A stretch of 24,653 bases of DNA from Myxococcota bacterium (GTDB taxonomy: Bacteria; Myxococcota_A; Polyangia; Polyangiales; Sandaracinaceae), in NCBI GenBank assembly GCA_036149055.1, contig JAYZQJ010000132.1, positions 1 to 24,653 of the forward strand, written 5' to 3'. The position numbers were made by a program, and so were the translations under genes. This document shows, piece after piece, positions 288-23,191 of this stretch. The first letter of the stretch is position 1. Every line of letters begins with the position of its first letter. The notes beneath the pieces were generated by a model. The model was not told where the DNA came from, did not search any database, and saw nothing but the letters and a program-made list of their open reading frames with translations.

Positions 288-1424
288 TCAGAACCGTTTG
301 CCCATCTTCAGCGCGCGGACGAGGTCGTTGGGGGACGAGGCGGCCGCGCGGGCGGTGTTCTCGTCGATCAGGCCGTCGCGCACCATCTGGATGAGCTGCT
401 GGTCGAAGGTGTGGGTGCCGTACTCGCTGGTGCCGCTCTCGAGGGCCTGGGCGAGGCCGCGGAAACGGTTGGGGTCGCGGATGCAGTCCTGCACGGTGGG
501 GGAGCGCATGAGCACCTCGGTCGCGAGGATGCGCTCCTTGGCGCCGCGGCGCTGCACGAGGCGCTGGCTGATCACCGAGGCGAGCGCGTCGGCGAGGCGC
601 TGGCGCACCGTGTCGCGGTGACCCTCGGGGTAGAAGTGGATCATCCGGCTGATCGCGCGCGCCGAGTCCTGCGCGTGAAGGGTGGAGAGCACCACGTGGC
701 CCGCCTCGGCGGCGCTGAGCGCGATGTCGAACTCCTCGGGGGTGCGGATCTCGCCGACGAAGATCCAGTCCGGGTCCTCGCGCAGCGCGCCCACCAGGCC
801 CTCGCGGATGCCGTCGACGTCGCGGCCGACCTCGCGCTGCGAGAAGGTCGAGCGGTACTCCTCGAAGAGGTACTCGATCGGGTTCTCGATGGTGACGATG
901 TGCTTGCTGCGCTCCTGGTTCACCAGCTCGAGGAGCGACGCGATGGTCGTGCTCTTGCCGTTGCCGGTCGCGCCGGTCACCAGCACGAGGCCGCGGTCGA
1001 GCGCGGTGAGGCGCTTCACCACCGGCGGGACGCGCAGGGTGGCGAAGTCGGGGATCGGCGAGGGGATGGTGCGCAGCACCAGGGCGGCGGTGTTGTTCTG
1101 CCGGTAGTAGTGCACGCGGAAGCGGCCGACGTCGGGCACCTCGCAGGCGAAGTCGCCCTGTCGCGCCTGCAGGCGCTCCTCCGGGATCTCCGCGTAGGCG
1201 GCGAGCGTGTCACGCACCAGCTCCACGAAGCGCGGCGGCAGCTCCGGGTGGTCGAGCGGGCGGAGCGCGCCCTCCATGCGCACGATGGGCGCGTGCTTGG
1301 CGCGGAGGTGCACGTCGGAGGCGCCCGCGGCGAGCGAGCCCTTCAGGATGCGGAGCAGGGCCTCGGTGACGCGCTGGATGCCGCCGCCGGACGCGCTCTC
1401 GCGGACCGTGGCCGCGACGCTCAT
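288..1424 (-). CDS. pilT: PilT/PilU-family type IV pilus retraction ATPase (378 aa)
   Basis: ASDVHL, GRFRV, Walker A GATGNGKST, Asp box TIENPIE, QREVG, LREDPD-IFVGEIR (Walker B), His box GHVVLSTLH, TFDQQL. ATG at 1424 overlaps the upstream stop (ATGA). It is a paralogue-type PilT; orthology to the main pilT is not established. Confidence 0.9.
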   Translation of the reverse strand: MSVAATVRESASGGGIQRVTEALLRILKGSLAAGASDVHLRAKHAPIVRMEGALRPLDHPELPPRFVELVRDTLAAYAEIPEERLQARQGDFACEVPDVGRFRVHYYRQNNTAALVLRTIPSPIPDFATLRVPPVVKRLTALDRGLVLVTGATGNGKSTTIASLLELVNQERSKHIVTIENPIEYLFEEYRSTFSQREVGRDVDGIREGLVGALREDPDWIFVGEIRTPEEFDIALSAAEAGHVVLSTLHAQDSARAISRMIHFYPEGHRDTVRQRLADALASVISQRLVQRRGAKERILATEVLMRSPTVQDCIRDPNRFRGLAQALESGTSEYGTHTFDQQLIQMVRDGLIDENTARAAASSPNDLVRALKMGKRF

Positions 1425-2020
1425 CCCGCCGCCGCCTTCTTCGCCTCGCGGACCTTGCCGATCGGCGCGTCGACCCGCAGGCCCTTGCGCTCGAGCACCA
1501 CCTGGCGACCGACGCGCGACTCGACGCCGACCACGAGCGGCGCCATCAGGTTCGCGGTCGGCTGGCTGCCGTCGCCGGGCACGTTGACCACCAGCGCGAT
1601 CGCCTTGTCCTCGTCGAGGTCGAGCGCGGCCCGCGCGTCCTCCACCGGGTAGCCCGGCCACGCCTCCTCGGCGTCCACCACCAGGAGCTGCACCTCTGGG
1701 TCGCGGCAGCTCACCAGGCAGCGGATCGGGTTGCCCTCGTCCAGGTCGCAGAGCACGAAGCCGTCGTGCTCGGCGAGGCCGAAGAGCCCCTCCGGGAAGC
1801 GGATCTCGGCGCCGGCCGCGACCCCCTCCTCGACCGCCTTCGCCAGCGCGGCGCGGTTCTGCTCGCTCACCCGCTCGACGAGCTCGGCGCGGTGCACCGG
1901 CAGCTCGCGCGGCGCCCGGATGCCGAGCCGCACGCGGCCCCCCGAGACGCTCACGACGGTGACCTCGATGTCGGCGCCGATCGTGATCGTCTGCCCGACC
2001 CTTCGCGTCAATGTCAACAT
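1421..2020 (-). CDS. csrA: CsrA-FliW fusion protein (199 aa)
   Basis: aa 1-58 MLTLTRRVGQTITIG...VRLGIRAP...VHRAE...EQNRAA is CsrA. From about aa 72, IRFPEGLFG...TANLMAPLVV...GRQVVL is FliW. Single uninterrupted frame. Confidence 0.9.
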   Translation of the reverse strand: MLTLTRRVGQTITIGADIEVTVVSVSGGRVRLGIRAPRELPVHRAELVERVSEQNRAALAKAVEEGVAAGAEIRFPEGLFGLAEHDGFVLCDLDEGNPIRCLVSCRDPEVQLLVVDAEEAWPGYPVEDARAALDLDEDKAIALVVNVPGDGSQPTANLMAPLVVGVESRVGRQVVLERKGLRVDAPIGKVREAKKAAAG

Positions 2021-2027
2021 GGTCTTC

Positions 2028-2906
2028 CTAACCCATCTCCGCCAGCGACGGCGGCGGCATCCTTGCCGCGATGGCCAGGGCTTCCCGGAGGGCGCCCTCG
2101 GCCTTGACGAGATCCGTGAACGACTCGACCGGGTCGGCCTCGACCAGGTCGGCGCGACGGCGGATCGCCTCGTCGCGCACCCGCTCGGCGGCGGCCGCCG
2201 CCTGCATGAGCGCCTGCTGCTGTCCCCCCGCGTTCGCCCGGCCGTTCGCGATCTGGTCGACGCTCGCCGAGAGGCCCCCGATGGAGGCGTGGATCGCGTC
2301 GCCGTCGTTGGCGCGCAGGGCCGCCTCGAGGTCGTCGAGGGCGGTGAAGGGGTTGGTCCCGCCCGAGGCGCCGAAGATGTCGGCCGCGCTGACCTGGGTC
2401 GCGAGGCGGAGGCCCGGGCCGACCTCGATCTCCTTGAGCTGCGTCTCGCCGAGGTAGGCGCCGGTCGCGTCGAAGGGCGCCCGGTCGACGCTGAGCCCGC
2501 TGAAGACGTACTCGCCCTCGATCTTGGTGTTGCCGAGGTTGAGCAGCTCGGCGCGCAGGGCCGCGATCTCGCTCGCCATCGCGCTCCGGTCGTTCGCCGA
2601 AACGTGGTCGTTGGCGCCCTGCACCGCGAGCTCGCGGGCCCGCGACATGATGTCGCCGACGTTGCCGAGCGTGTCGTCGACCGCCTGCAGCCGATCGACC
2701 GCCTCGTTGCTGATCTTCGCGACCGCGTCCGAGCGCCGCTCGCGGCTCTTGGTGCCCCGGGCGAGGCTCGCCGCCACCGGATCGTCGGACGGCTTCTCCA
2801 CCCGCATGCCCGAGGAGGCGACGCGCTGCGCCTCGAAGAGCGACTCCCGGTTGTTCGCGACGCCGCGCGTCGCGAGCTCGTGCATCATCGAATCGGATAC
2901 ACGCAT
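2028..2906 (-). CDS. flgL: Flagellar hook-filament junction protein FlgL (HAP3)
   Basis: Flagellin-like N-terminus MRVSD...SSGMRVEKPSDDPVAA, RARELAVQGAND, NTKIEGEYVFSG; 292 aa; directly downstream of flgK. Confidence 0.9.
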   Translation of the reverse strand: MRVSDSMMHELATRGVANNRESLFEAQRVASSGMRVEKPSDDPVAASLARGTKSRERRSDAVAKISNEAVDRLQAVDDTLGNVGDIMSRARELAVQGANDHVSANDRSAMASEIAALRAELLNLGNTKIEGEYVFSGLSVDRAPFDATGAYLGETQLKEIEVGPGLRLATQVSAADIFGASGGTNPFTALDDLEAALRANDGDAIHASIGGLSASVDQIANGRANAGGQQQALMQAAAAAERVRDEAIRRRADLVEADPVESFTDLVKAEGALREALAIAARMPPPSLAEMG

Positions 2907-2909
2907 CGG

Positions 2910-4304
2910 CTACCTCCCCAGGTTCACGAGCTCTTGGAGCATCGCGTCCGCCGCCTGCACCACCCGAAGCGAAGCCTGGTAGCCGCGCTGGTAGCGGCTG
3001 AGCGCGATCATCTCCTCGTCGACCGAGACCCCGGAGACGGAGTCGCGCATCGACTGGATCTGGGCCGCGGCGTCGTCCGCGAAGTCGGCGTCGAGGTGCG
3101 CGCCCCGGATCGCCTGGCCGGCCTCGCTCACCAGCGCGCCGAGCGACTCCTGCGCGGTCATGCGACCTCCGCGCGCGATGTCGGCGTCGGCGAGGGCGGC
3201 GAGCGCGAGCGCGTTCCGGTTGTCGCCGGCCGCGAGCGCCGGGTCGCTGGCCGCCGCGAGGCGATCGGGCTCGCCGAGCACGTCGGTCGAGACCGAGAAG
3301 GCGGCCGCCGCGCCGTCCACCGCCGCGATCGGCGTGAACAGGTTGCGGCCGCTGACGCCGTCGGTGCCGTAGCCGGCCGCGTGCGCCGTGTTGTAGGCGG
3401 CGGCGAAGTCGAACGCGAGCTGGTCGAGCGCGGCCTCGGAGTCGGCGAGCGCGCCGTCCCGGGCGGCGACGAGGCCGCCGAGCGCGCCGCTGTCGGCGTA
3501 CGCCGTCACGTCCTGGTCGACCCCGGAGGTCGTGCGGAACAGATGCATCGCCCCGGTCGTCGCGTCGGGCTGGGCCGAGAGCTGGGCCACCGAGCCGTCC
3601 GGGTTCACCAGCGACGGGCCGCCGCCGAGCAGCACCTGGATCGCGCCGCTGTCCTCGGCGATCACCTCCACCGGGAGCTTCTCGCCGAGCTCGCGCACGA
3701 GCTGGTCGCGCCGGTCGCGGAGATCGCTCGCCTCGCGGCCGCCGATCTCCGACTTCTGGATCTGCACGCCGAGCTCGCCGATCGAGCGCAGCGTCTCGTT
3801 GATGCCGTCGACCTCGCGCTCGATCTGGGTGTCGATGTCGGCGCGGGTCCGGTCGATCTCCTGCGCCGCCTGGTTGAAGGCGACCGCGAGCCGCTCGGCG
3901 GTGGCGAGCACCTGGCCGCGGGTCGCGGGATCCGCCGGCCGCCCGGTGAGCTCGCTGAGCGCCACCTCGAAGTCGTCGAGCGAGGCGCCGAGCCCACCCT
4001 CGACGTCGGCCAGCACCCGGTCGAGCACCGAGAGCGCCTCGCTGCGCGAGCTGGCCTCGGCCTTGGCCGCGGTCGCGCCGAGGAGCCGCCGCTCGAGGAA
4101 CTGATCCATGACCCGGCGCGATCCACGCACCGCGACGCCGCCGCCGCCGTCGGGCGGGGGGCTGATCGGATCGAAGCGCACGTCGCGCCGGGTGTAGCCG
4201 ACGGTGTTGGCGTTCTGCGCGTTCTGCGACGCGACGCCCATGCCGAAGCCCTGCGCGTGCAGGCCGGTCGCGCCGACGTTGAGGAGACCGAAGAGGCTGC
4301 TCAC
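2910..4304 (-). CDS. flgK: Flagellar hook-associated protein FlgK (HAP1)
   Basis: N-terminal LNVGATGL...SQNAQNANTVGYTRR, central DLRDRRDQLVREL, C-terminal SVSGVSVDEEMIALSRYQRGYQAS; GTG start overlaps the flgN stop. Confidence 0.95.
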   Translation of the reverse strand: MSSLFGLLNVGATGLHAQGFGMGVASQNAQNANTVGYTRRDVRFDPISPPPDGGGGVAVRGSRRVMDQFLERRLLGATAAKAEASSRSEALSVLDRVLADVEGGLGASLDDFEVALSELTGRPADPATRGQVLATAERLAVAFNQAAQEIDRTRADIDTQIEREVDGINETLRSIGELGVQIQKSEIGGREASDLRDRRDQLVRELGEKLPVEVIAEDSGAIQVLLGGGPSLVNPDGSVAQLSAQPDATTGAMHLFRTTSGVDQDVTAYADSGALGGLVAARDGALADSEAALDQLAFDFAAAYNTAHAAGYGTDGVSGRNLFTPIAAVDGAAAAFSVSTDVLGEPDRLAAASDPALAAGDNRNALALAALADADIARGGRMTAQESLGALVSEAGQAIRGAHLDADFADDAAAQIQSMRDSVSGVSVDEEMIALSRYQRGYQASLRVVQAADAMLQELVNLGR

Positions 4305-4618
4305 AGCACACCTCTCGTCAGCCGCGGGCCCTCGGGATCCTGCGCGCGTCCGTCGGCCCCGTAGCCGCCGCCCGCCTGGTCCACCCCGGCGAGCGCCCGG
4401 TGCACGAGCACGAGCTGACGCATCAGCCCGACGTTCGCGCGGGCCATCTCGGAGAGCCGCCGGAAGCGCGGCCCCTCGAGGCCGCCGGCGTCTCGCGCGC
4501 GATCGAAGAGCGCGCGCTTCTCCTCCTGCAGGGCTTCGAGCCGCTCCACGTCCGCGTCGATCGCCGCCTGGCGCTCGTGGGTGAGGAGGTCTTCGAGGTT
4601 CTGCAGGAGGTCGTCCAT
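4301..4618 (-). CDS. flgN: FlgN-like flagellar export chaperone
   Basis: 105-aa helical protein (LEDLLTHERQAAIDADVERLEALQEEK...N..L) at the canonical flgM-flgN-flgK position. Confidence 0.7.
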   Translation of the reverse strand: MDDLLQNLEDLLTHERQAAIDADVERLEALQEEKRALFDRARDAGGLEGPRFRRLSEMARANVGLMRQLVLVHRALAGVDQAGGGYGADGRAQDPEGPRLTRGVL

Positions 4619-4622
4619 GTCT

Positions 4623-4898
4623 TCAGCGCTCTTCGTCGAGCATCGCCGAGGCGATGCGGTCGGGGTCGATCCGGAACTCGCCGTCGAGGATCGCCTGCTT
4701 CAGGCGGGCCACCTTCTCGGCGTCGGGACGCTCGGGCGCGCGGAGCTCCCGCGTGGCGCGGGCCGCGTCGCTCATCTCCACCTCGGCCGCCGGGCGACCG
4801 ACCGCGCGCTCCGCCGGGGCGGACTCGCTGCTCGGGGCGCCCTTGCGCTCGCGGGTGGACTCGATCTTCGCGTAGGGGTTCTGGCCGGTGATCTTCAT
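4623..4898 (-). CDS. flgM: Anti-sigma28 factor FlgM
   Basis: 91 aa, MKI start, VEMSDAA, C-terminal EKVARLKQAILDGEFRIDPDRIASAML signature. Confidence 0.92.
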   Translation of the reverse strand: MKITGQNPYAKIESTRERKGAPSSESAPAERAVGRPAAEVEMSDAARATRELRAPERPDAEKVARLKQAILDGEFRIDPDRIASAMLDEER

Positions 4899-6118
4899 GG
4901 ATGGGTCTCCGAACCCTCATTCGGACGGTCCGAGGCGGACCTTGAGGAAAAAGATCGATTTTCTTCCGATCCGCGCACCCGCTCCGCGTCATGCACGGAA
5001 CCATTGGCGTTTTCGTGGATCGGACGCTCGGGACGCGCCCCATCTCGGGGACGTCGGAGGGCGATGATGTGGATGGAGTCGAAGCCGCCGCGCGCGTCCT
5101 CGCCGCCCGGGTTCCCGTAGCGGTTCCAGGTGCGCCGGGTGAGGTGCATGGCGCCGCGGGAGCGCCCCTCCCAGCCGTCGAACACCACCCGGGTGATGCG
5201 GCCCTGGTCGTCGTAGTCGACCTCGTGCACGCGCTCGACGATGCCCATGTGGCCGGAGCGGTCGCCGACGCTCGAGCCGGTGAGCAGGAAGGCGCGGTCG
5301 CCGCGCACCGCGGCGGAGTCGAGGCTCTCGGCGGTCTCGCCGGTCACGACCTCGCCCCAGTCGCCGCGCAGGCGCCCGGCGTCCGCGTCGGCGGTGACTC
5401 CGTCCGGGCCCATGTAGCCCCAGCCGCGGGTGCGACCGATGAGCGGGACCTCGAAGCCGGCCCGCCGCGCGAGCTCGAACGCGAAGAGGTTGCACTTGTA
5501 GGCGCCCTCGAAGCCGGCCGCGTCGCGCACGTTGAAGGTGGCGAGGCCGTCCGGGCCCTCGGTGGAGAAGTCGCTCGCGAGGTCCGCCTCGGTCAGCCGC
5601 CCCGCCCGGCCCCACTGCGAGGCCACGCCGTCGGCGCCCAGCATCTGCCGCGCCGCCGCCTGGAGCCGGCCGGTCATGCCGCCGAGCGCCGAGCCGGTGG
5701 GCGGCCGCGCCTCGAGGATCTCGCCGACGCTGCGCGGCGCGAAGGGGGTGAGCGGCCGGAGCGCGGTCCCGTTCTCCTGCTCGGCCATCCGCTGATCCAT
5801 CATGGCCCGGTACGCGGCGGGCCCCATCATCGAGCGCTCGATCGTCTGGCGCATGCCCATGCCGCCGGCCGCGGTGAGCGAGTCGGCGAAGCTCTGGTCG
5901 AAGAGGTGCGAGTACATCTGCGAGCCGGCGCCGTTGCCGAACATGCCGCCCTCGCCGCCGACCGTGCTGCGCATCACCGACACGAGCTGCTGGATCAGCA
6001 GGCCCTCGAACTGCCCGGCCGCGTCCTGGATCCGCGCCTGCCTCCGCTCGGCCTCGGTGGCCGCGTCGGGCTGGGTCGGGATGCCGGGGACCCCGGCGCC
6101 GGGCAGGCCGATGGTCAC
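4895..6118 (-). CDS. flgJ: FlgJ-like protein: N-terminal rod-binding domain plus C-terminal putative Cys/His peptidase domain (407 aa)
   Basis: GTG at 6118 overlaps the flgI stop. AAGQFEGLLIQQLVSVMRST...MYSHLFDQSFADSL..AGGMGM is the rod-binding signature; YKCNLF and GHMGIV lie in the C-terminal half; located between flgI and flgM. Confidence 0.8.
   Translation of the reverse strand: MTIGLPGAGVPGIPTQPDAATEAERRQARIQDAAGQFEGLLIQQLVSVMRSTVGGEGGMFGNGAGSQMYSHLFDQSFADSLTAAGGMGMRQTIERSMMGPAAYRAMMDQRMAEQENGTALRPLTPFAPRSVGEILEARPPTGSALGGMTGRLQAAARQMLGADGVASQWGRAGRLTEADLASDFSTEGPDGLATFNVRDAAGFEGAYKCNLFAFELARRAGFEVPLIGRTRGWGYMGPDGVTADADAGRLRGDWGEVVTGETAESLDSAAVRGDRAFLLTGSSVGDRSGHMGIVERVHEVDYDDQGRITRVVFDGWEGRSRGAMHLTRRTWNRYGNPGGEDARGGFDSIHIIALRRPRDGARPERPIHENANGSVHDAERVRGSEENRSFSSRSASDRPNEGSETHP
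4918..4945 (-). promoter_or_regulatory. Candidate sigma28 (FliA) promoter for flgM
   Basis: Minus strand TCAAG-N15-TCCGAATG, ending about 20 nt before the flgM ATG and preceded by an unusually AT-rich patch; resembles the TCAAG/TAAA...GCCGATAA consensus. Confidence 0.45.
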
Positions 6119-7227
6119 TGGACCTCGATCTCCGCGTGCAGGGCGCCGGCGGTGCGCAGCGCCTGGAAGATGGCGATGAGATCGCGCGGCCGCGCGCCGA
6201 GCGCGTTGAGCGCGTTGACCACGTCCTGGAGGCTCGCGGCCGGCCCGATGCGGCGGAGCGCGCCGCCCTCGGCCTGCACCTGCACGTCGCTCTGGTCGAC
6301 CACCGTCGTGTCGCCGTCGGCGAGCGCGTTGGGCTGCGACACCGCGGGCTGCTCGCGGATCTGCACGGTGAGCCCGCCCTGGGCCACCGCGACCTCGGTG
6401 ATGGTCACGTTCGCGCCGACCACCACCGTGCCGGTGCGCTCGTCGATCACGATCCGGGCGCGCGTCTCCGGGGTCACCTCGAGCACCTGGAGCCGGGCGA
6501 GCAGCCCCACCCGATCCTCGTTGTCGGCCTCGGGCACGGTGATGCGCACGGTGCCGGAGTCGACCGCGCGGGCCGCGCCGTCGCCGAGCTCGCCGTTGAT
6601 CGCCTCGGCCACCCGGCGGGCGGTGATGAAGCTCGGCGCGCGCAGCGTCAGCGTCAGCGGCCCCTCGGTCGACAGCCCGTTGCCGGGCACGCGCCGCTCG
6701 ACGATCGCGCCCTCGGGCACGCGGCCGGCGGTGAGGTGGTTGCGGCTCACGCTGCTGCCCGTCGCCCCGCTCGCGCCGAAGCCGCCGAGCAGGATGGGCC
6801 CCTGAGCCACCGCGTAGACGTTCCGATCCGCGCCGTAGAGCGGGACCTGCAGCAGCGTGCCGCCGGCGAGGCTCCGCGCGTTGCCGAGCGAGCTGACCGT
6901 CACGTCGATGTGCGTGCCCGGGTTGGCCGACGGCGGGAGCGTCGCGGTCACCATCACCGCCGCCGCGTTGCGCGTCTGGATCATGCGCGGATCGATGGTG
7001 GCGCCCAGCCGGCGCAGCATCGCGGCGGTCGACTGCAGGGTGAAGCGCGCCTGGCCGGTGTCGCCGGTGTTGTTGAGGCCGACGACGAGCCCGTAGCCGA
7101 CGAGCTGGTTGTCGCGCACGCCGTCGACCTCGCAGAGCTCGAGGATCCGGGCGGCGTGGGCTCGCTCGGGGGCGAGCAGCGCGAGGAGGAGGGCGGCGAT
7201 GGGGAGGAGGCGTCGCATCGTCTTCAT
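6115..7227 (-). CDS. flgI: Flagellar P-ring protein FlgI
   Basis: Signal peptide, then GVRDNQLVGYGLVVGLNNTGD, NAAAVMVTATLP, VYAVAQG, IVIDERTGTVVVG, LNALGARPRDLIAIFQALRTAGALHAEI. Start could be 7230, 7227 or 7218. Confidence 0.97.
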   Translation of the reverse strand: MKTMRRLLPIAALLLALLAPERAHAARILELCEVDGVRDNQLVGYGLVVGLNNTGDTGQARFTLQSTAAMLRRLGATIDPRMIQTRNAAAVMVTATLPPSANPGTHIDVTVSSLGNARSLAGGTLLQVPLYGADRNVYAVAQGPILLGGFGASGATGSSVSRNHLTAGRVPEGAIVERRVPGNGLSTEGPLTLTLRAPSFITARRVAEAINGELGDGAARAVDSGTVRITVPEADNEDRVGLLARLQVLEVTPETRARIVIDERTGTVVVGANVTITEVAVAQGGLTVQIREQPAVSQPNALADGDTTVVDQSDVQVQAEGGALRRIGPAASLQDVVNALNALGARPRDLIAIFQALRTAGALHAEIEVQ

Positions 7228-7916
7228 CACATCGGGTTGACGTGACCGAGGAGCTGCTGCAGCCAGCCGGGGCGCTGGTTCTGCGTGAGATCGCCGCGGC
7301 CGGAGAACTCGATCTCGGCGTCGGCGATCCGGCTCGAGGGCACGGAGTTGTCTTCCTGGATGTCCTGCGGGCGGATGACGCCCGAGACGTAGATGTGGAG
7401 CTCCTCCGCGTTGACGAGCAGCACCTTGGTGCCCTCGATGAAGAGGTCGCCGTTGGGCAGCACGCGCCGGACGCGGACCGCGATGTCCGCCTCGATGTTG
7501 CTCGAGCGTCGGGTGTTGCCGGCGCCATCGAACTGGGTCGTGCTCATCAGGTTGAGGAGCTGCGACGGGTCGAGCTCGGGGTAGGCGCCCTGGAGCGCGG
7601 CCATCAGCCCGAAGAGCCCGCCGACCCCGAAGTTGAAGTTGCTCTCGCGGTCCATCGAGGTGGCCGCGTCGCCGATCGCGCGCGGGTTCTCGTCGACCCG
7701 GATGGTCACCAGGTCGCCCACCATGCTGGCGCGGAAGTCCGCGAACAGGCCGCGGCTGCGGTCCTGCCAGAGGCTGCCGCCGGAGACCGGCGTGCTCTCC
7801 TCCTCGTAGGGCCCGGGCTCGTAGTCCCGGTGGCGCGGCGTGTACTCGCGGATGTGCGACTGCGGGTAGCAGCCCATGAGCAGCGCGAGCGAGAGGAGCG
7901 GGGCGAAGCGCTTCAC
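7227..7916 (-). CDS. flgH: Flagellar L-ring lipoprotein FlgH
   Basis: GTG start, lipobox LLMGC, GSLW, LFADFRA..VGDLVTI, VLPNGDLFIEGTK, SGVIRPQDI..DNSVPSSRIADAEI, QRPGWL. Confidence 0.96.
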   Translation of the reverse strand: MKRFAPLLSLALLMGCYPQSHIREYTPRHRDYEPGPYEEESTPVSGGSLWQDRSRGLFADFRASMVGDLVTIRVDENPRAIGDAATSMDRESNFNFGVGGLFGLMAALQGAYPELDPSQLLNLMSTTQFDGAGNTRRSSNIEADIAVRVRRVLPNGDLFIEGTKVLLVNAEELHIYVSGVIRPQDIQEDNSVPSSRIADAEIEFSGRGDLTQNQRPGWLQQLLGHVNPM

Positions 7917-8596
7917 GGGACCACCTCCACGGTGTCGGCGTCGATGACGCGGGCGCGGAGGCCGCCGCGCGTCTGCAGGTTCTGGACACGGATCACGTCG
8001 CCGACCCGCCCAGGCTGGCGGGCCACCCCGGGCGCGCTCGCCTCGACCGCGCCGAAGCGCGCGACCACCCGGACCCGTCGGCCGGGCGCGACGATCGGCG
8101 CCGGGCACGACACCCGGGCCTGGGCCGGCACCCGGACCTCGCGGCCCCCGGCGCGGAGCACCACCACCACCGCCGCCGCGCCCGAGCTGCGCGGGGCGGC
8201 GCCCTCGGCCTCCACCTCGAGCGGCCCCTGGGCCACCGTCGCGTCCCCGCGGACCGTCAGATCGTCGACGGTGCAGGGCGCGAGCGTCTGCCGCACCGCG
8301 GCCCGCGACAGCTCCGCGAGCGCCTCGGCGTCGAGCGCCCGGGCCTCGCGCCGGATCCGGGTGGAGCGCGGGATGGCGAGCCCGCGCGGATCTCTGCCGG
8401 CCCGCCGGAGCGCGGCCAGCACCTCGCTCCGGCGCACCGTGCGGGAGGCCCCCGGCGGCGGCGCGGCCCCGATCGGGAGCTGCCCGAGCTCGGTCCCGGC
8501 GAGCGCGGGGATCACCTCCCCGAGCTGGATCTGCTCCTGCGCGAGCGCGACGCCCGGGAGGGCGAGGAGCGTCAGCAGGACGACGAAGAAACGCAT
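7913..8596 (-). CDS. flgA: Flagellar P-ring formation chaperone FlgA
   Basis: Signal peptide MRFFVVLLTLLALPGVALA; C-terminal GVARQPGRVGDVIRVQNLQT...LRARVIDADTVEV; immediately upstream of flgH with a GTGA overlap. Confidence 0.85.
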   Translation of the reverse strand: MRFFVVLLTLLALPGVALAQEQIQLGEVIPALAGTELGQLPIGAAPPPGASRTVRRSEVLAALRRAGRDPRGLAIPRSTRIRREARALDAEALAELSRAAVRQTLAPCTVDDLTVRGDATVAQGPLEVEAEGAAPRSSGAAAVVVVLRAGGREVRVPAQARVSCPAPIVAPGRRVRVVARFGAVEASAPGVARQPGRVGDVIRVQNLQTRGGLRARVIDADTVEVVP

Positions 8597-8608
8597 GCCC
8601 CGACCCAC

Positions 8609-8624: not shown

Positions 8625-8770
8625 CCGCCCGCCCCTCCCGAAAACCGGGCCGTTTCGCCCCCGATCCCCCCGCCCGTCAGTCATCCCCCTGGCGATCCGC
8701 CGGAGCGTTGACGCCCCCCTCCCCGGTCGCGGCGTGGCTCCGGCGGGCCGAGCCCAACCGCGTTCTCGCC

Positions 8771-8940
8771 AACTCGAATCGGCAGAGCTGACACGCGAGG
8801 GTGCGAGCGGCGCGATCCGAGCGGCGCGACGGCGGCACCGATCTCTGCCGATTCGAGTCGCGGCGCCCTTCGTGGCGTCGACTCGCGCCGTGGTGACGCC
8901 TGCTCGATCGGGCGGCCGGCGATCTCTGCCGATTCGAGTC
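8771..8940. repeat. Distal cluster of three 20-bp REP-like repeats
   Basis: AACTCGAATCGGCAGAGCTG at 8771 (reverse); GATCTCTGCCGATTCGAGTC at 8840 and 8921 (forward). Same family as the copies around the RAYT gene. Confidence 0.9.
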
Positions 8941-9043
8941 GCGCCCCGCCCGCGCTGGCTCCGGCGGACCGAGGCTGCCGTGGGTTGACGCCCGGCCACG
9001 CTCGACCCTTGACGCGTTCGGCTGCGGCCCGAAGGTGCGCCGC

Positions 9044-10312
9044 ATGTCGCAGCGGAACGAGAAGCCGGGTCCGAGCAACGCAACCCTCGTGGCTGGCGCC
9101 GGGCTGCTCACGATGCTGGCGGTCCTCCTCGCCAGCTGCGGCGGCGCTCGGGAGCCGTCGCCACCGACTCCGGGCGGCGATCGACTGACTCGGAGGCTCG
9201 ACCGCGTGCTCGAGGCCGCGGTGGAAGAGTGTCGCGTCGTCGGCGCGGTGCTCCTCGTGTCTCGAGACGGTGAGCTCGTCTATCGCCGCGCCGTCGGCTG
9301 GGCCGACCGGGAGCGACGGCTCCCGCTGCGTGAGGACGCGCTGTTCAGGTACGCGTCGGTGACCAAACCATTCGTGGCGACCGCGGCGCTCGTCCTCGTT
9401 CGACGGGGCGCCCTGTCGCTCGAGGATCCGGTGGATCGATACCTGCCCGACTTCCGTCCGCGGCTCCCGGACGGCAGCACGCCTCCCATCTCGATCCGAC
9501 ACCTCCTCACGCACACCAGCGGGCTCGGGTACTCCTTCTCGGAGCCCGACGGCGGGCCCTACCACGAGGCGGGAGTGTCGGATGGTCTGGACGCCCCCGG
9601 GCTCGCCTTCGAGGAGAACGCGCGGCGACTGGCGACGGTGCCTCTGCTCGCGCGACCCGGCACCGCGTTCAACTACTCCCTCTCGACCGACGTCCTGGGA
9701 GAGGTGGTGGCGCGCGCCCACGGCACTTCACTGCCCGAGGCGGTGACCGAGCTGGTCCTTCGTCCGCTCGGCCTGGCGGCGGCACGTTTCCACGCCCATG
9801 GCGCGGCCGACTTGGTGGTGCCTTACGCCGACGGCGACGACTGCCCCGTGCGAATGGAAGAGGGACACCGGGTGCCCTTCGGCGCGTCGGCGCTGGTGTT
9901 CTCGCCGCGACGCGCGCTCGACCCGCGGTCGTATCCCTCGGGAGGCGCCGGAATGCTCGGCACCCCAGGAGAGCTCATGACGCTGCTCGAGGCGCTCCGC
10001 GTCGGCGACGAGCGGCTGCTCCCCCGCGACACCGCTCTCGGCGCTCTTCGAGACCAGCTCTCGGACAGCGACACCTCCTGGCTCGGCGAAGGGATGGGGT
10101 TCGGGTACGTGGGCTCGGTCGTAACCGACCCGCGCGCGGCGGGCCGCGACGTCAACGCCGGCACCGTGCAGTGGGGCGGGGTCTACGGCCACTCCTGGTG
10201 GATCGACCCCGTGTCCCGGCGCACGGTGGTCCTCATGACGAACACCACGCTGGAAGGAATGTCGGGGCAGCTCGCCAGCGACGTGGAGGCCGCAGCGCTG
10301 TCCCGCGACTGA
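9044..10312 (+). CDS. Serine hydrolase, family VIII esterase / class C beta-lactamase-like, probable lipoprotein
   Basis: SxxK (ASVTKP), LLTHTSGL, PG..FNYS, SGGAGM, WGG motif; lipobox VLLASC. ATG 9044 preferred over GTG 9035. Confidence 0.9.
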   Translation: MSQRNEKPGPSNATLVAGAGLLTMLAVLLASCGGAREPSPPTPGGDRLTRRLDRVLEAAVEECRVVGAVLLVSRDGELVYRRAVGWADRERRLPLREDALFRYASVTKPFVATAALVLVRRGALSLEDPVDRYLPDFRPRLPDGSTPPISIRHLLTHTSGLGYSFSEPDGGPYHEAGVSDGLDAPGLAFEENARRLATVPLLARPGTAFNYSLSTDVLGEVVARAHGTSLPEAVTELVLRPLGLAAARFHAHGAADLVVPYADGDDCPVRMEEGHRVPFGASALVFSPRRALDPRSYPSGGAGMLGTPGELMTLLEALRVGDERLLPRDTALGALRDQLSDSDTSWLGEGMGFGYVGSVVTDPRAAGRDVNAGTVQWGGVYGHSWWIDPVSRRTVVLMTNTTLEGMSGQLASDVEAAALSRD

Positions 10313-10356
10313 GAGACCCGGGGAGGCACTTGCCCTCGCCCCAAGACGGACGCAGA

Positions 10357-10392
10357 ACCGCCGCCGTCGACGCGGGGGTCGACGGCGGCGGT
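10357..10392. terminator. 15-bp stem hairpin between convergent genes
   Basis: ACCGCCGCCGTCGAC-GCGGGG-GTCGACGGCGGCGGT perfect inverted repeat between the stops at 10312 (+) and 10410 (-); no U-tract. Confidence 0.6.
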
Positions 10393-10409: not shown

Positions 10410-11174
10410 TCAGGCCTCGATGGGCTCGGGGCCCACCGGCTCCGGCTCGACCGGCTCCGGCTCGACCGGGTCGACGTCGGTGACCACGTCGTCGTCGACG
10501 AGGATCTCGACCTCGGTGCCGTCGGAGCGGCGCGCGCGGCGGAGGAAGCCGAGGGAGCGGAGGACGCGGCGGTCGCGGATGACGACGCGCGCGATTCCGC
10601 TCCACTCGAGGTACCAGTTCCAGGCGCGGTCCTCCGCCTCCTGCACCGCTTCCGGCGTCTTGCGCGCCAGCGGATCACGCGTCGCCGGCACGGTGCCGAC
10701 CCGGGCGACGAGGGCCCGCGCCGCGGAGACCACGTCCTCGGTGAGCCCCCGCGCGGTCAGCCGGGCCCGCGCCTCCTGCCCGCGCTCCAGCCCGCCCTCG
10801 TCGACCGGCTTCGCGACGGCCTCGAGGCGGTCGAGCAGGGTCATCACCGAGATGACGACGTCGGGCCCGGACGACTGGCTGAGGTTGCGGAACACGACCG
10901 CGTGCACCTCGGGGAAGTTGGTGCGGAGCACGACCTCCGCGATGGGATACCAGCGGTTCTCCCAGGCATCGATCTCGCCCAGCAGGGTGGGATCGACGCC
11001 CGGGGTGATGCCGAGGCGGCGGCCCGTCAGCTCGTGCAGGAGCCGCATGCCCTCCTGGCGGTCCGCCTCGGTGAAGCCGTGCGGAGCGAGCGCTCCCTGC
11101 ACGTGCTCGTTCCCGAGGCCGATGATGAAGCCGACGATCCGGCGCGCCTTCTCTCCGATGGAAAGGTTGCTCAT
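10410..11174 (-). CDS. Hypothetical alpha-helical protein, paralogue A (254 aa)
   Basis: ATG 11174 with a purine-rich RBS (GAGAGGGGG). Aligns end to end with 11595-12266 (HGFTEAD, WENRW.PI.EVVLRT, RGLTE, WYLEWS.IAR, SLGF). Acidic tail with EPEPV repeats. Confidence 0.85.
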   Translation of the reverse strand: MSNLSIGEKARRIVGFIIGLGNEHVQGALAPHGFTEADRQEGMRLLHELTGRRLGITPGVDPTLLGEIDAWENRWYPIAEVVLRTNFPEVHAVVFRNLSQSSGPDVVISVMTLLDRLEAVAKPVDEGGLERGQEARARLTARGLTEDVVSAARALVARVGTVPATRDPLARKTPEAVQEAEDRAWNWYLEWSGIARVVIRDRRVLRSLGFLRRARRSDGTEVEILVDDDVVTDVDPVEPEPVEPEPVGPEPIEA

Positions 11175-11293
11175 GGGCACCCCCCTCTCTCTGTTCGATG
11201 GGTCGAGTGGCGACCGAGGCCCCTCCTCCGCCGCCGTCACGCCCACCCTCATCGGAGCGCCGCGCCACCGGTTGCGTGGAGATCTCGCGGACT

Positions 11294-11453
11294 GACGCGC
11301 CCCCTCATTCCGGAGACGCGCCCCCTCATTCCAGAGACGCGCCCCCTCATTCCAGAGACGCGCCCCCTCATTCCGGAGACGCGCCCCCTCATTCCGGAGA
11401 CGCGCCCCCTCATTCCGGAGATGCGGCCCCTCATTCCCGAGACGCGCCCCCTC
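11294..11453 (+). repeat. 21-bp tandem repeat, 7 full units plus a partial eighth
   Basis: Unit GACGCGCCCCCTCATTCC(G/A)GA starting at 11294, 11315, 11336, 11357, 11378, 11399, 11420 (variant) and 11441 (partial). Confidence 0.97.
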
Positions 11454-11550
11454 GAGGGGCGCACCGAGCGATCGAGGGGGCGCTCGTCTCGAATCGGGGG
11501 GCGGGCGTCTCGCGATCGGGGGGCGCATCCGCGGAATCGGGGGGCGCACC
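11454..11550 (-). repeat. About five degenerate inverted copies of the same 21-bp unit
   Basis: (G/A)ATCG(A/G)GGGG(G)CG cores near 11471, 11492, 11514 and 11535, plus GAGGGGCGC at 11454, period about 21-22. They match the reverse complement (GAATGAGGGGGCGC) of the left array. Confidence 0.8.
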
Positions 11551-11594
11551 GCTCGACCACGCAACCAGGCCGGCGGGGTGGCGATGGGGGGTCG

Positions 11595-12266
11595 ATGGCG
11601 AAGCTCCGAGTCCCCCAGAAAGCGCAGCGCGTGCTCGAGCTCCTGATCGGGCTCGGCCACCCGCAGGTCCGCGACGCGCTCGCCCGCCACGGCTTCACCG
11701 AGGCCGACCTCGACGACGGGTGGGCCCGCCTGCGGGCCCTCTCGAGCGTCACCAACCTGCTCGCGCCCGAGCTACCGAGCGCGCAGCTGGTGGCGGACCT
11801 CGACGGGTGGGAGAACCGGTGGTTCCCGATCGTCGAGGTCGTCCTGCGCACCCATCACCCCCGCGCGCGGGAGCTCGTCTTCCACAACCTCCGCCAGACC
11901 GAGGGCTCCGAGGTCGTCGTCTCCGTGGCCATCCTGCTCGATCGCATCGACGCGCTCCCCCGCCCGCCGGCCGAGGGTGGGCTGGGCGAAGAGGGCCGTC
12001 GCGCCCGCGAGCTGCTGCGCACCCGCGGCCTCACCGAGGAGATCACCGGGAGCGCCCGCGCGCTGCTCGCCCGCGTCGGCGCGCCCCCGCCCACCGGCGA
12101 CCGCGCCCGCGCCTCACGCGAAGCCCGCGCCGCCGCCGAGCAGCACCTCTGGAGCTGGTACCTCGAGTGGAGCGCGATCGCGCGCGCCGCGATCCAGGAC
12201 CGCCGCCTCCTCGCCTCGCTGGGCTTCCGGCGGCGAGGCAAGCCAGCCCGCGGCGACGCGACGTAG
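11595..12266 (+). CDS. Hypothetical alpha-helical protein, paralogue B (223 aa)
   Basis: ATG 11595 (MAKLRVPQKAQR), G-rich RBS; about half of the residues identical to paralogue A by manual alignment. Confidence 0.85.
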   Translation: MAKLRVPQKAQRVLELLIGLGHPQVRDALARHGFTEADLDDGWARLRALSSVTNLLAPELPSAQLVADLDGWENRWFPIVEVVLRTHHPRARELVFHNLRQTEGSEVVVSVAILLDRIDALPRPPAEGGLGEEGRRARELLRTRGLTEEITGSARALLARVGAPPPTGDRARASREARAAAEQHLWSWYLEWSAIARAAIQDRRLLASLGFRRRGKPARGDAT

Positions 12267-12820: not shown

Positions 12821-13528
12821 TCAGGCGGCCTTCTTGGCGGGGGGACCCGGGCGTCGGGCCGGGTCGAGGCGGCCGCCCGCGCGCCGCCAGCCGACCGACA
12901 GGAGCCAGGTCTCGGGAGGCTCGGCCGGAGAGTCGCGCGACGGGAGCATCGAGAGCGTGGTGTGCACCGCGACATTCCACCCGGTGAAGAAGATGCCGCT
13001 GCTGAGCGGGTCGGCCCACCGCGGATCGTCGGGGGCGACGCCGTGACGCCGGGCGTTGCCCAGCACATAGGCGATCGCGTTGCGCACCGCGCGAGGGCTG
13101 CGCAGCGCGCGGCTGTGGTAGCGGTCGGCGAAGACCGCGCCCTTGCGACGCATCACGCGGTTCACCATGCGCGCGATCCGCACGCAGAGGCCCTGCATGC
13201 CCCGGGCGAGCATCTCCGCGTCGTCCGCCTCGACGAGCATGTGGATGTGATCGCGCTGAAAGGAGAAGTGCACGATGCGCACGCCGCCCCGCGCGTTCGC
13301 CTTGCGAATGATCTCCCAGAGCCGGGTGGCGAGGCGGCGCCCGCGCAGGCTCCAGATCTCGCGCTTCACCTTCAGGGTGACCAGCACCGGGTGCCGGGCC
13401 GCGAAACGCTCACGCGTCTCGTGCGGGACGCCCGCCTTCTCGCCCTTGGGCTTGCGCCCCGCCCCGGGCCGCGCGCCGCCGTGGGAGACGTACACGAAGC
13501 TGACCTGCTTCTGCTTTCGCCGTCGCAT
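12821..13528 (-). CDS. REP-associated tyrosine transposase (RAYT/TnpA-REP, HUH Y1 family), 235 aa
   Basis: HUH motif FSFQRDHIHMLVE, GAVFADRYHSRAL, catalytic-Tyr helix AIAYVLGNARRHG, W.DP.SS; flanked on both sides by inverted 20-bp repeats; no tnpB. ATG 13528 chosen because the longer ORF runs into repeats. Confidence 0.88.
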   Translation of the reverse strand: MRRRKQKQVSFVYVSHGGARPGAGRKPKGEKAGVPHETRERFAARHPVLVTLKVKREIWSLRGRRLATRLWEIIRKANARGGVRIVHFSFQRDHIHMLVEADDAEMLARGMQGLCVRIARMVNRVMRRKGAVFADRYHSRALRSPRAVRNAIAYVLGNARRHGVAPDDPRWADPLSSGIFFTGWNVAVHTTLSMLPSRDSPAEPPETWLLSVGWRRAGGRLDPARRPGPPAKKAA

Positions 13529-13605
13529 GCCCGCACGGACGCGCGGCCGGATGCCCGACTGACGCCATTCACAAGAAAAGATGCACGCCACTTCGTTTTC
13601 CCGGA

Positions 13606-14964
13606 GAGCTCTGCCGATTCGAGTCTCGGGGGTCGAGGATCTCTGCCGAATCGACTTGCCGTCGGGCGCTCGATTCGGCCGGCGACGAGCTCGGGCGTGG
13701 CGCACGTGACCCCGGCGGAGCTGACTCGAATCGGCAGAGATTCAGCCGAGGGCGACCTCTGCTCGACGGCGCGCGAGCAAGGTGCCCGTGATCTCTGGCG
13801 TCTCGATTCGGCAGAGATGTCCCGACGGCATCCTCTCCTCATCGGGGAGCCGAGCGGCGAGTCAGAGCTCTGCCGATTCGAGTCGCCCGGCGCGCCAGGT
13901 CGACTGCCGAGCTCCGGCGCGTGGGCAGGTGCCCGTCATCTCTGAGGAGGTCTCGATTCGGCAGAGATCCCCCGACGGCCCCTCTCTCACCGAGGAGGCG
14001 AGCGGCGGTACGGATCTCTGCCGATTCGAGTTGCCCGGCGCGGCGGACCGATTTGCGGGCGCAGACCGGCGGGTGTTCTCGGCCAACTCGAAACGGCAGA
14101 GCTCAGGCATGGCGCGTCGCGCCGAGTCGCCGGAGGAGCGGCGCGCCGAGGCCACGCCGGCGGTCCTCCCCGCGCGGAGGTCGGGCGCCCGTCATCTCGG
14201 CCAACTCGAATCGGCGGAGAATCACGCTTCGGCTCGGCGTGGCGGGCGCGAGCGATCTCTGCCGATTCGAGTCGCGTGGCGTTCGGGTCCCATCCACAGG
14301 GCGGCTCCAGCGGCCGCCTGTGCGCGGAGCCACGGTGTCCAGCTCGCGAAGCAGAGACTCGCCCGAGGGCGTCTCTGCTCGAGCGAACGGGGGGCGCGCG
14401 CCTTGGCCACCGATCTTTGCCGATTCGAGTCCGCCGCGCGTGGCGGTCGGCTCTACGATGCCCGGGTGCATCGAACGCTCTACGGGCGACTCGATTCGGC
14501 AGAGATGCACGCCTCGGCGACGTCCGCTCGGCCGGAGGGCCTACTGCGCCCTACGATGAGGCGGTCTGGCCGGGTCGCCGAGGCGGCTCCAGGGCGGTCG
14601 AGCCTGCCGGAGGGACGAGCGGCCCGCTCGAAGAGTCCTCAGGATCTTTGCGACTCGAATGGGCAGAGATCTCGCGAGTCGTCCGAGACGAGGACCATCG
14701 TCCGCGCACGGAGGTGCGGAGCGACGAGATCAGCCCGATAAGCGCGAGCGGCGGCCACCGTTCTCTGCCGATTCGAGTCGCGCGGCGCTCCGGCTCGGCC
14801 GATGCGCGGGCGCGACTCGACGAGCCCATGCGGGACGTCTCGATTCGGCAGAGTTCCCGGGCCGGCGACCACGCGCGAGCTCGGGGCTCGATTCGGCAGA
14901 GATGCCCACGGTCCGCCGCGGGGCCGAGCTCCGCCGGTTCGTGCGAGATGAATCGGCAGAGATG
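13606..14964. repeat. 1.36-kb REP/REPIN-like array upstream of RAYT (17 clear and at least 2 degenerate 20-bp copies)
   Basis: Forward at 13606, 13638, 13865, 14013, 14254, 14412, 14760; reverse at 13723, 13800, 13950, 14085, 14203, 14488, 14652, 14837, 14885, 14945; degenerate at 13667 and 14341. Confidence 0.93.
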
Positions 14965-20007: not shown

Positions 20008-21237
20008 CTACGAGCCAGGCCCGGCGCCGGAGACACCCTCCGCCTCGAAGACCGCGTTCTCGCCGCCGAAGTCGTCGCGCACGTAGCGGGCCGATCCGGG
20101 CGGGCGGCGCGGCTCCCCGTCGACCAGGAGGTGGTAGCGGTGCGCCCCCGGCGAGACGGGGAAGGTGCCCTCGAAGACGCCGGGCGAGACCTCTCGCAGC
20201 CGGCCCCGCGCGGGATCCCAGCCGTTGAAGTCGCCGATCACGCTCACCTCCTCGGCGTCGAGCGCGAAGCGGAAGCGCGCCCGCCCGCCGGAGACGGTCA
20301 CCGGCCCGGGCGGCGGCGGGGGCGGCGGCGGCTCGACCTCGAGCTCCACCCGGAAGCCTCCCGTGATCGCGAAGCGGTCGTAGGCGAGGGCGCGCGGCTG
20401 CCCGGAGGCGTGCCCGAGCTCCAGCGACACCCAGGGCCCGAGCCACGGGAGGGGGCGGGCCCAGACCGAGAGGCGGGCCACGTGCTCGTCCCCGGTGCGC
20501 GAGCCCACCTCGAACTCGCGCCGGACGAAGCGGTAGGACAGCGCCGCCCCCACCCACTCGGTCCGCGCCGCCGCCGCCGCCCAGGGCACCAGCTCGGTCC
20601 GGCGCGCCTGCGGGTCGTCGCTCTCCCGGCGCCACACCTCGAGGCCCGCCCCGAGCTCGAGCCAGTCGAGGCGCGCGTCGAAGGTGAGCGCGGCGCCGCC
20701 GAGGACGTCGGTCTGCCCGAGGTCGAACGCGCGCGCGCCGGCCAGCCCGTCGAGCTGGACGCCGAGCCCGTCGAGCAGGGCGAGCCGCGCGCCGCACCGG
20801 CCGACGACCGCCGAGGCGTCGTCGCCGCCGAAGCCGGTGTCGAGGCGCTCCCCGGCGACGGCGCAGCGGGGCGTCACCGGGGGGAGATCGAAGGCGACCT
20901 CGAGCTCCAGGCGCTCGTAGAAGAGGGCGTCGCCGCGCTCGTACACGCCGCCGCTCACGTCGAGCTGCGCCGCGAGCCGCCAGGGGCCGTCCGCGTGAGC
21001 GCCGCGGGCGAGGCCGGAGACGGCGAAGAGCCCCTGGCCGCCGGCCGCGGGGGCGCGATCGGGGAGCCGCCGGTTGTCGCTCGGGGCCGCGAGCTGGGGG
21101 TTGTCGTCCCAGCCGCCGCCCACCCGCAGCTCGGCCTCGAGCCGCTGCGCCCCGGCCGGGAGCGCGACCGCCAGCACCGCGAGCGTCGTGAGCAGCGCCG
21201 CGCCGCTCACGGCGCCGGAGCCTCGGCCTCTCGACAT
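20008..21237 (-). CDS. Secreted, probable outer-membrane beta-barrel protein with C-terminal CBM48/AMPK-type glycogen-binding domain
   Basis: Signal peptide, alternating beta-strand pattern, poly-Pro linker, then VSVIGDFNGWDP...YHLLVDGE...DDFGGENAV. Confidence 0.8.
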   Translation of the reverse strand: MSRGRGSGAVSGAALLTTLAVLAVALPAGAQRLEAELRVGGGWDDNPQLAAPSDNRRLPDRAPAAGGQGLFAVSGLARGAHADGPWRLAAQLDVSGGVYERGDALFYERLELEVAFDLPPVTPRCAVAGERLDTGFGGDDASAVVGRCGARLALLDGLGVQLDGLAGARAFDLGQTDVLGGAALTFDARLDWLELGAGLEVWRRESDDPQARRTELVPWAAAAARTEWVGAALSYRFVRREFEVGSRTGDEHVARLSVWARPLPWLGPWVSLELGHASGQPRALAYDRFAITGGFRVELEVEPPPPPPPPGPVTVSGGRARFRFALDAEEVSVIGDFNGWDPARGRLREVSPGVFEGTFPVSPGAHRYHLLVDGEPRRPPGSARYVRDDFGGENAVFEAEGVSGAGPGS

Positions 21238-21243
21238 CCAGCG

Positions 21244-21867
21244 TCAGTCCACGCGGACGATCGCGTTCCGGTGACCGAAGCCGTCGTCGCGGAAGTTGGT
21301 CGCGTAGGGGTCGCTCACCCAGCGCTCGCCGTCCACCACGAACATGTAGGCGTGCGATCCGGGGGGCAGCTCGGCCGCGCCCACGAACACCCCGTCGCCG
21401 TCGTCGTCCCGCAGGACGGTCGCGTCCGTGCGCCACTCGTTGAAGTCGCCGGCCACCGCCACCGTGCGCGCCCCCTCGGCCGGGAGCGCGAACTCGACCC
21501 GGCGCGGCGCGGGGGCCGCCTCCTCGGGCGGCGGCGCCGAGGGGCGGCGGGCCCAGAGCGCCAGGGCGAGCGCGACCGCCGCGCCGAGGCCCACCCACGC
21601 GGCCGGATGGAGGTGGAGGCGGGGAAGCGCGCGGCGGCGCGGCGGCGCGGCGTGCGCGCGCTGAACGGCCCGGAGCACCGCGCCGTCCACGAGATCGTCC
21701 GGCACCGGCGGCGCCGGCGCCGCGCGGAGCGCGTCGACCACGTCCAGCGCCGCCTCGAGCTCCGCGGCCAGCGCCGGGTCGCGCGCCGCCTCCGCCCGCA
21801 GCGCCGCGGCCTCGACCGCGTCCAGCTCGCCGTCGACGAGCCTGCGCACCCGCTCCGACCGGGTCAC
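21244..21867 (-). CDS. Putative anti-sigma factor with transmembrane helix and CBM48 glycogen-binding domain
   Basis: N-terminal LVDGELD anti-sigma-like segment, TM AAWVGLGAAVALALALW, VAVAGDFNEW...YMFVVDGERWVSDP...DDGFGHRNA; start overlaps the ECF stop. Confidence 0.85.
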   Translation of the reverse strand: MTRSERVRRLVDGELDAVEAAALRAEAARDPALAAELEAALDVVDALRAAPAPPVPDDLVDGAVLRAVQRAHAAPPRRRALPRLHLHPAAWVGLGAAVALALALWARRPSAPPPEEAAPAPRRVEFALPAEGARTVAVAGDFNEWRTDATVLRDDDGDGVFVGAAELPPGSHAYMFVVDGERWVSDPYATNFRDDGFGHRNAIVRVD

Positions 21868-23115: not shown

Positions 23116-23191
23116 TTCGTTCCGTCCTACGAGCGCCGAGGCGATCGGGATACGCGGGTATCCTGGCGCGCCGGCGCCTCGTACTCCAGGC

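Follow-up and report, generated by a model that had tools for sequence, protein, structure and literature searches.

What kind of element is formed by two divergent paralogous genes and the mirror-image array of 21-bp repeats that lies between them, and what reads the array? We address this question for a stretch of 24,653 nucleotides (here called the window), which corresponds to contig C132 in a genome (G000) of 9.9 Mb and 96% completeness from the Sandaracinaceae. A sequence-only reading had proposed that each gene and its upstream array form a unit that was duplicated head to head long ago, and that the array serves either as binding sites for the encoded protein or as a repeat RNA bound by it. 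The features of the locus are as follows.

10358-10391, strand not assigned: hairpin with a 14-bp stem, 3' of gene A and near the left cassette end, without a T-tail
10410-11174, minus strand: gene A, encoding a 254-aa all-helical protein of the family that has a Pro-rich, acidic tail
11250-11277, minus strand: promoter-like box ACGCAACC-N15-CGATG, before gene A
11294-11453, plus strand: left arm of the array, 7.6 near-identical 21-bp units (94% matches), each with a C-run
11444-11462, strand not assigned: central dyad (C-run, TCGA, G-run), the flip point of the units as read from the sequence
11456-11547, minus strand: right arm of the array, five degenerate inverted units with G-runs 20 to 22 bp apart
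11559-11586, plus strand: promoter-like box ACGCAACC-N15-CGATG, before gene B
11595-12266, plus strand: gene B, 223 aa, paralogue of A, with two internal repeats of ~105 aa each

The A/B locus lies in a variable patch that has flagellar genes on one side and, on the other, a RAYT-like transposase gene accompanied by REP repeats of its own. The flagellar-type genes of this myxobacterium (1421-8608; by eye, CsrA-FliW-like, FlgL, FlgK, FlgN, FlgM, FlgI, FlgH, and FlgA-like) are syntenic in the congener G001. The region of the beta-lactamase-family gene to the left of the locus (8716-10332) looks like a swappable cassette: in other strains (run X17 and contig L262), ~1.4 kb of other DNA takes its place, and the A-array-B block is kept. 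The RAYT-like Y1 transposase gene (12821-13705, minus strand) matches Pfam Y1_Tnp and scores under the NCBIfam cut-off. Its REPs (8773-8938, 12360, and 13623-14887; 67 exact cores in G000) form clusters that bracket the beta-lactamase-like gene and the A/B block; 12 bases are common to one right-arm unit and the REP core, probably by chance. Farther to the right (20008-23454), an ECF sigma gene is found with two genes that by eye have glycogen-binding-like C-terminal domains and a gene for a helical secreted protein.

The spacer between A and B is 420 bp long, and its description as 7.6 near-perfect 21-mers that flip at a CTCGAG center (11451-11456) into five degenerate inverted units held in full. 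By a tandem-repeat measure, the right arm covers 11471-11547 with a period of 21, 3.6 copies, and 75% matches; its G-runs start at 11456, 11476, 11496, 11518, and 11539. The proposed check on this arm, whether it resembles the inverted unit, came out positive: its best four units agree with the inverted unit in 58 of 84 positions, versus 46 of 84 for the direct unit, and the null scores averaged 45.4 with a maximum of 50 in 200 dinucleotide shuffles and reached at most 49 in 200 random genomic windows. Because an independent metagenome contig (L262) carries this cassette with an identical unit count, and with 300 bp between the promoter-like boxes in both, the array is not an assembly artifact. 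The constant repeats and unique spacers of a CRISPR or other guide array were not found, the left-arm units being near-identical head to tail. We rejected the idea that the array is translated as an N-terminal 7-residue repeat; the frames are open by composition, and homologues start at the annotated Met. Contigs from one RNA run (X18), whose library possibly contained DNA, cover 10444-11087 of gene A, parts of gene B, and 11498-11566; they leave the left arm uncovered, which is uninformative.

Genes A and B are identical at 111 of 224 aligned residues, in line with the ~50% first estimated, and both the WENRW and the WxWYLEWS motifs are present. Their duplication is indeed old: in a FastTree phylogeny, A and B group separately with the A-type and B-type genes of a second head-to-head locus (L002), with support values of 98 and 96. 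The sequence-only reading could place the proteins in no characterized family, and our searches agree. Neither protein had a match in Pfam, PHROGs, PADLOC, or (by sequence) PDB, and no NCBIfam match reached its cut-off. The structure prediction and Foldseek search that had been suggested gave an all-helical model (pLDDT, 89.6; pTM, 0.54) and no Foldseek match for either protein; a VIA-align search found only generic helical bundles (best Z, 8.6; rmsd, 3.1; 80 aligned), which neither name the fold nor exclude one.

The two halves of the protein are homologous (hhalign probability, 95%; E value, 2e-8; 94% in the distant clade), and each has the motif L-x-x-(H/R)-G-(F/L)-T and, after it, a long helix that bears Trp. 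Among 150 near relatives, the polar residues that are conserved are D70, E73, R117, R144, Y189, E191, and R197. Because Y189, D70, and E73 are absent from the columns kept at 90% in a 40-row alignment of distant members, there is no fixed catalytic set, and an invariant Tyr, Ser, His, or DDE set was not found across the clades. The protein, all-helical in its model and internally duplicated, has no known fold or catalytic motif. The cores of A and B are basic (pI 9.8 and 10.8), and pI across the family is mixed, with a median of 6.9. Gene A has a dN/dS of ~0.27 against two congener copies, which points to purifying selection; gene B, with ~0.9 over 87 comparable codons, is not clearly under purifying selection. 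A copy of gene B that is 5' truncated occurs in G001 (L146:4119-4391), within a 990-bp duplication.

The family is large, comprising 2,107 clusters at 50% identity (E < 0.001), and its named homologues come mostly from Sandaracinaceae and Polyangiaceae. One related family is NF052641 (PQLLE): of 40 members of the distant clade, 25 matched it at E < 0.01, the best with an E value of 1.8e-8. Since all of these matches fall far below the cut-off of 80 bits (A, 15.1; B, 17.8; best relative, 34.3), the A/B family is a distant relative of PQLLE and not a member, and the weak homology suggests that the two belong to one superfamily. The second candidate, DUF6261 (PF19775; gathering score, 27 bits), had no match in A, B, or 36 aligned members. 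Its ESM feature score of 0.82 to 0.85 lies under the tool's bar and is a language-model lead only, and none of the 21 matches in a homologue search with the distant alignment, made with this link in mind, carried a Pfam family. PQLLE and DUF6261 are, like A and B, uncharacterized helical proteins.

The test that had been proposed was to look for arrays in the flanks of homologues. We examined 79 loci from genome contigs, 64 of which had more than 600 bp of upstream sequence. A period-21/22 signal of at least 0.55 was found upstream in 44 of these 64, compared with 5 of 72 downstream windows and 19 of 304 more distant windows, and the expected tie between array and family was thereby borne out. 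The best lag was 21 in 42 of the 64 loci and 22 in 6. After clustering of 78 near-clade genes at 70% identity, and with a threshold of 0.6 (A and B of the window counted separately), 29 of 54 genes had an upstream array, versus 2 of 51 downstream; the remaining 25 of the 54 had none at this threshold. Distant subclades show a weaker link, with 10 of 30 rows, including 4 from the present window. No neighbor other than paralogues is recurrent in the near clade.

That the period persists despite divergence had been suspected from A and B and proved true across loci. Units of different loci have only the C-run in common, and unit sequences differ even between paralogues of one genome. The close B-type relatives L001 to L003 (~60% identity) have one-directional arrays without C-runs. 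The linkage counts largely refute one alternative explanation, namely, a neutral MITE containing a minisatellite that lies by chance near A/B-type genes. Such an element is hard to reconcile with arrays that stay with a single gene family through many genera and whose units are unrelated in sequence but fixed in period and phase. In its favor, gene-free copies exist among other repeat families, and MITEs with internal tandem repeats are known (PMC4596501). The apparent terminal inverted repeats of the array are its promoter boxes, which are absent from six of the seven gene-free copies that we read, and we consider the neutral explanation very improbable.

We scored the flip as two phased blocks in succession, the first of C-runs and the second of G-runs (chain test); an earlier comparison of position weight matrices with shuffles flagged 12 of 60 and missed L102. 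Among 99 distinct genes, 32 have the C-run-then-G-run flip upstream and 2 (both at L043) have the reverse order; in the downstream controls, the flip was found in 1 of 91. In the de-replicated set, the flip was found at 22 of 54 genes versus 1 of 51 controls, mostly at single genes; none was found upstream of 21 distant genes. At L043 (3482-4000), head-to-head family genes have the opposite array polarity, G-runs then C-runs, with a 22-bp period. The other A/B-type locus, L002, has one-directional repeats throughout its spacer (one strand has 18 motif matches and the other 0). The proposal that head-to-head duplication of a gene-plus-array unit produced the mirror therefore fails: single genes and gene-free copies carry both arms, and the A/B pair is old, yet L002 is one-directional and L001 and L003 are without a flip. 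Instead, the two paralogues share one symmetric array, and the flip is a property of the array.

The two arms of such arrays are in register. In a set of 32 elements (26 gene linked and 6 gene free, after 7 duplicate or near-identical rows were dropped), the gap between the arms was 0 to 4 modulo 21 in 26, kin being included so that the elements are not independent. Where the gap is short, the center reads CCCC-NN-GGGG. Gaps of more than 15 bp were 0 to 5 modulo 21 in 14 of 16; register is therefore kept in the duplex where a hairpin would not need it.

The promoter-like boxes bear on how the array is read. From their shape, we infer that they are ECF-type promoters; a sigma-70 scan found none, and the available part of PMC6061681 does not identify a sigma factor for the box. 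Family-wide, 27 of 82 genes have GCAAC-N16/17-CGA on the sense strand within the proximal 200 bp, placed downstream of the array, between array and gene; the motif was found on the antisense strand in 2 of 82, at a greater upstream distance in 2 of 76, and downstream of the gene in 1 of 79. Because a conserved promoter-like box sits between the array and each gene, the array would lie outside both mRNAs and is probably read as DNA. The repeat-RNA option of the sequence-only reading is disfavored for the same reason.

A structured RNA could nevertheless take the form of a long imperfect hairpin that is bound by the protein or acts as a leader. The spacer does fold better than its shuffles (z of -4.3 as RNA and -3.0 as single-stranded DNA), and the similarity of arms is slightly higher within a locus (0.35) than between loci (0.30), but any inverted repeat folds well, and the promoter-like boxes point away from the array. 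The arms also pair poorly (13 to 16 of 21) and expand independently, one being uniform and the other ragged, either way round; the arrays of L001 to L003 cannot form this hairpin, and Rfam has no family for the spacer array (one chance match). An RNA role thus seems quite improbable to us.

If the array is read as DNA, its reader might still be a host factor (a nucleoid protein or an activator), or the array might act as a supercoiling-driven cruciform, with the protein doing an unrelated job, for example, in stress or defense. Three observations fit: the promoter-like motif also precedes other G000 genes (47 sites at spacing 16; the codon-equivalent spacings 13 and 19 gave 33 and 31, respectively); the part of PMC8161180 available to us proposes that repeats of constant length and variable sequence bind nucleoid proteins; and the HerA partner described below is a common defense component. 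A shared host reader is at odds, however, with unit sequences that differ between paralogues of the same genome and with arrays that track the gene family, not the promoter motif, and PADLOC has no match for A or B. We regard this explanation as quite unlikely. As an observation in its own right, CGCAAC-N16-CGAT occurs 47 times in G000, often 8 to 50 bases before a start codon, and is a candidate ECF regulon of the lineage.

A lattice read by its geometry would be the simplest account, because period and phase are kept and sequence is not, because the array has two-fold symmetry, and because it lies upstream of the promoter of a two-fold helical protein. We therefore tentatively propose a two-part module consisting of a noncatalytic helical protein and its own DNA array. 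The array would be a lattice of 21-bp steps, two helical turns each, around a central CCCC-NN-GGGG dyad, with half-sites facing opposite ways on its two sides. The protein, with its two-fold internal repeat, would load at the center and spread outward one step per unit, and spreading would control the promoter at the array edge; at A/B there would be two such promoters, one per paralogue. The module would move between variable islands as a cassette, and gene-free arrays would be relics, or copies that have become detached, to which the protein encoded in the same genome may still bind. To us the array looks like an undescribed protein-docking DNA element.

Gene-free arrays do exist. A generic scan of G000 found the flip structure at four places (C128, C132, C158, and C168), and since the genome has only two family genes, the three arrays outside the window are gene free; no family-gene remnants were found near them. 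Identity to the A/B spacer is 91% for the C158 copy and 86% for the C168 copy, and the variable parts of the right arm were inherited by the C158 copy, whose two ends coincide with the promoter boxes, where the predicted hairpin has its foot. The C128 array is ~70% like the array before a single family gene in G001, and the C128 and C168 copies sit in patches that are absent from G001. Conversely, G001 has three gene-free arrays. The first (~430 bp) is upstream of a DnaJ-like gene with an HPD motif, where G000 has ~55 bp; five outgroup loci have no period-21 signal on either side of that gene, and G002 and G010 have the same neighbor after a short spacer. The second is part of a patch of 1.4 kb that corresponds to 257 bp in G000, and the third has synteny on one side only. 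One more example was found in G003.

Across 41 relatives, genome-wide pattern counts were swamped by poly-C tracts and coding repeats and were not used as counts. We read 49 of 55 pattern-fetched loci (six repeats were omitted), taking the first one or two places per genome: in-register flips were found in 8 of 22 loci from gene-carrying genomes and in 0 of 27 from genomes without a gene match. In the seven gene-free copies read, we saw neither target-site duplication nor common ends, by eye and with filled and empty sites from two species of ~80 to 90% identity. Shared terminal inverted repeats of the MITE type were likewise not found, and a single copy has one partial promoter box. Short-period (~6-bp) repeat tracts adjoin gene-free arrays (G000 C128:148965-150400, C158:19400-20190, and C168:530-720; L173:3600-4200), and one such repeat family has more than 40 sites in G001. 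An ORF near the C128 tract is presumably four-helix-bundle-like.

Gene-free intergenic copies at sites that are empty in relatives are also what a RAYT/REPIN-type system produces. Under such an explanation, the protein is part of a selfish replicator that copies the array, and sometimes the cassette, to new intergenic sites via an extruded hairpin; the enzyme would probably be a recruited host or partner protein, such as a HerA-like ATPase. The G001 array at the DnaJ-like gene, missing in G000 and without a period in the five outgroup loci, and the C158 copy with its ends at the promoter boxes both speak for replication, as does the patchy, multicopy distribution of the family, which is present in 18 of 41 relatives (0 to 10 matches each; up to 10 copies in G021) and in 16 of 201 genomes of a phylum sample.

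The whole cassette also appears to have been duplicated. In G001, the A end is found on two contigs and the B end on two, 96 to 98% identical and with sharp outer ends; the copies diverge just past the A hairpin and ~15 bases past the B stop, and their A and B ends are paired by synteny, because the middle is unassembled. A hairpin resembling 10358-10391 ends both G001 copies; in the window, a terminator scan gave no calls, this hairpin (without a T-tail) included. No target duplication was seen at the G001 cassette ends.

A possible partner enzyme occurs in a sister clade: a HerA/DUF87 ATPase gene lies downstream of the family gene at 15 distinct loci (18 rows), mostly of the distant clade. 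An example is L130:915-3089; there, as at 14 other loci (in G021, G016, G007, G038, and L022), a gene for a short HerA/DUF87 ATPase (449 aa) comes after the helical gene. Several of these HerA-linked family genes have arrays upstream, and one unit is duplicated (95.6% over 3 kb). Array, helical protein, and motor possibly form a three-part system at these loci. No NTPase or ATPase gene was found near A/B, however, and there are few copies per genome (4 in G000). The family has no match in plasmids, phages, or IMG/VR and no invariant catalytic residues, and its gene-free copies show no target duplication or common ends. On balance, we consider a selfish replicator unlikely.

We return to the lattice module as our preferred reading, in which the A/B protein would bind the 21-bp lattice outward from its center, control its own promoter, and travel as a mobile cassette or island cargo; we judge it to fall somewhat short of an even chance. 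The linkage of array and gene, the phase, the position of the promoter, the gene-free copies, the empty sites, and the duplicated cassette are direct observations. Several points weigh against the reading. Binding is predicted for a protein without a known DNA-binding fold in a family of mixed pI, many family genes are without an array and the distant link is weaker, the arrays of L001 to L003 are one-directional and lack C-runs, gene B has a dN/dS of ~0.9, and the kept phase could reflect inheritance rather than selection. We also offer a bolder speculation, which we consider unlikely: a new class of chromosomal selfish elements without a catalytic transposase of their own, in which a helical scaffold polymerizes both ways from the dyad and, in complex with a HerA-like motor or host enzyme, seeds gene-free arrays and duplicates the cassette. 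These would be the myxobacterial branch of a PQLLE (perhaps DUF6261) superfamily that explains constant-length 21/42-nt repeats.

We found no description in the literature of a pairing of array and gene family, and such arrays may be listed in the supplements of PMC8161180 or in a 2020 J Bacteriol paper on tandem repeats. The accessible part of PMC8161180 describes bacterial tandem repeats of constant size (20 to 21 nt), which are variable in sequence, mostly noncoding, unexplained, and present in many bacteria. The A/B array is like them in its fixed length, variable sequence, and mostly noncoding position, whereas that part of the paper names no cognate gene family, inverted arms, or myxobacteria ("Myxococc" occurs 0 times). 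BrickBuilt and MITE464/PgRS of Porphyromonas gingivalis are dispersed intergenic elements with an internal tandem minisatellite and promoter activity at their ends (PMC4596501, in part), and the same source describes MITEs that contain tandem repeats of 23 and 41 nt. According to that part, the repeats of BrickBuilt are direct and 23 nt long, its terminal repeats are of the IS5 type, and no cognate gene lies next to it; the A/B array, by comparison, has units that change orientation, variable ends, and a gene family linked to it.

In RAYT/REPIN systems, as at A/B, a few gene copies are flanked by cognate repeats, gene-free palindromic copies are found between genes, and no target duplication is seen. 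In contrast to RAYTs, the A/B protein has no Y1/HUH domain (no Pfam or NCBIfam match; an all-helical model), and its units are tandem 21-mers, not short REP doublets, with 4 copies in G000 versus 67 local REP cores. What is new here is that the flip is in register, that there are empty sites, and that the cassette is duplicated, and there is a real chance that these features mark a new kind of element. The A/B locus offers a candidate reader beside its repeats, a defined geometry, a promoter to assay, and gene-free copies that can serve as natural controls. Large as it is, the family is wholly unannotated; if binding is true, it would represent a new DNA-coating protein fold and possibly a new route of repeat spreading.

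The parC-ParR system of plasmid R1 and iteron or operator arrays are bound by the product of the neighboring gene. The A/B array differs from parC and iterons in its 21-bp step, inverted arms in fixed register, location in chromosomal islands, and gene-free copies, and from parC-ParR in that we found no RHH or HTH fold, no ATPase at the locus, and no plasmid or phage match. The likeness lies in the phased array, the two sets of sites around a center, the position beside a promoter, and the small helical protein encoded next to it; the NTPase partner of parC-ParR has a counterpart here in one subclade only. By this analogy, we suggest that the A/B module works most like parC-ParR or iteron arrays.
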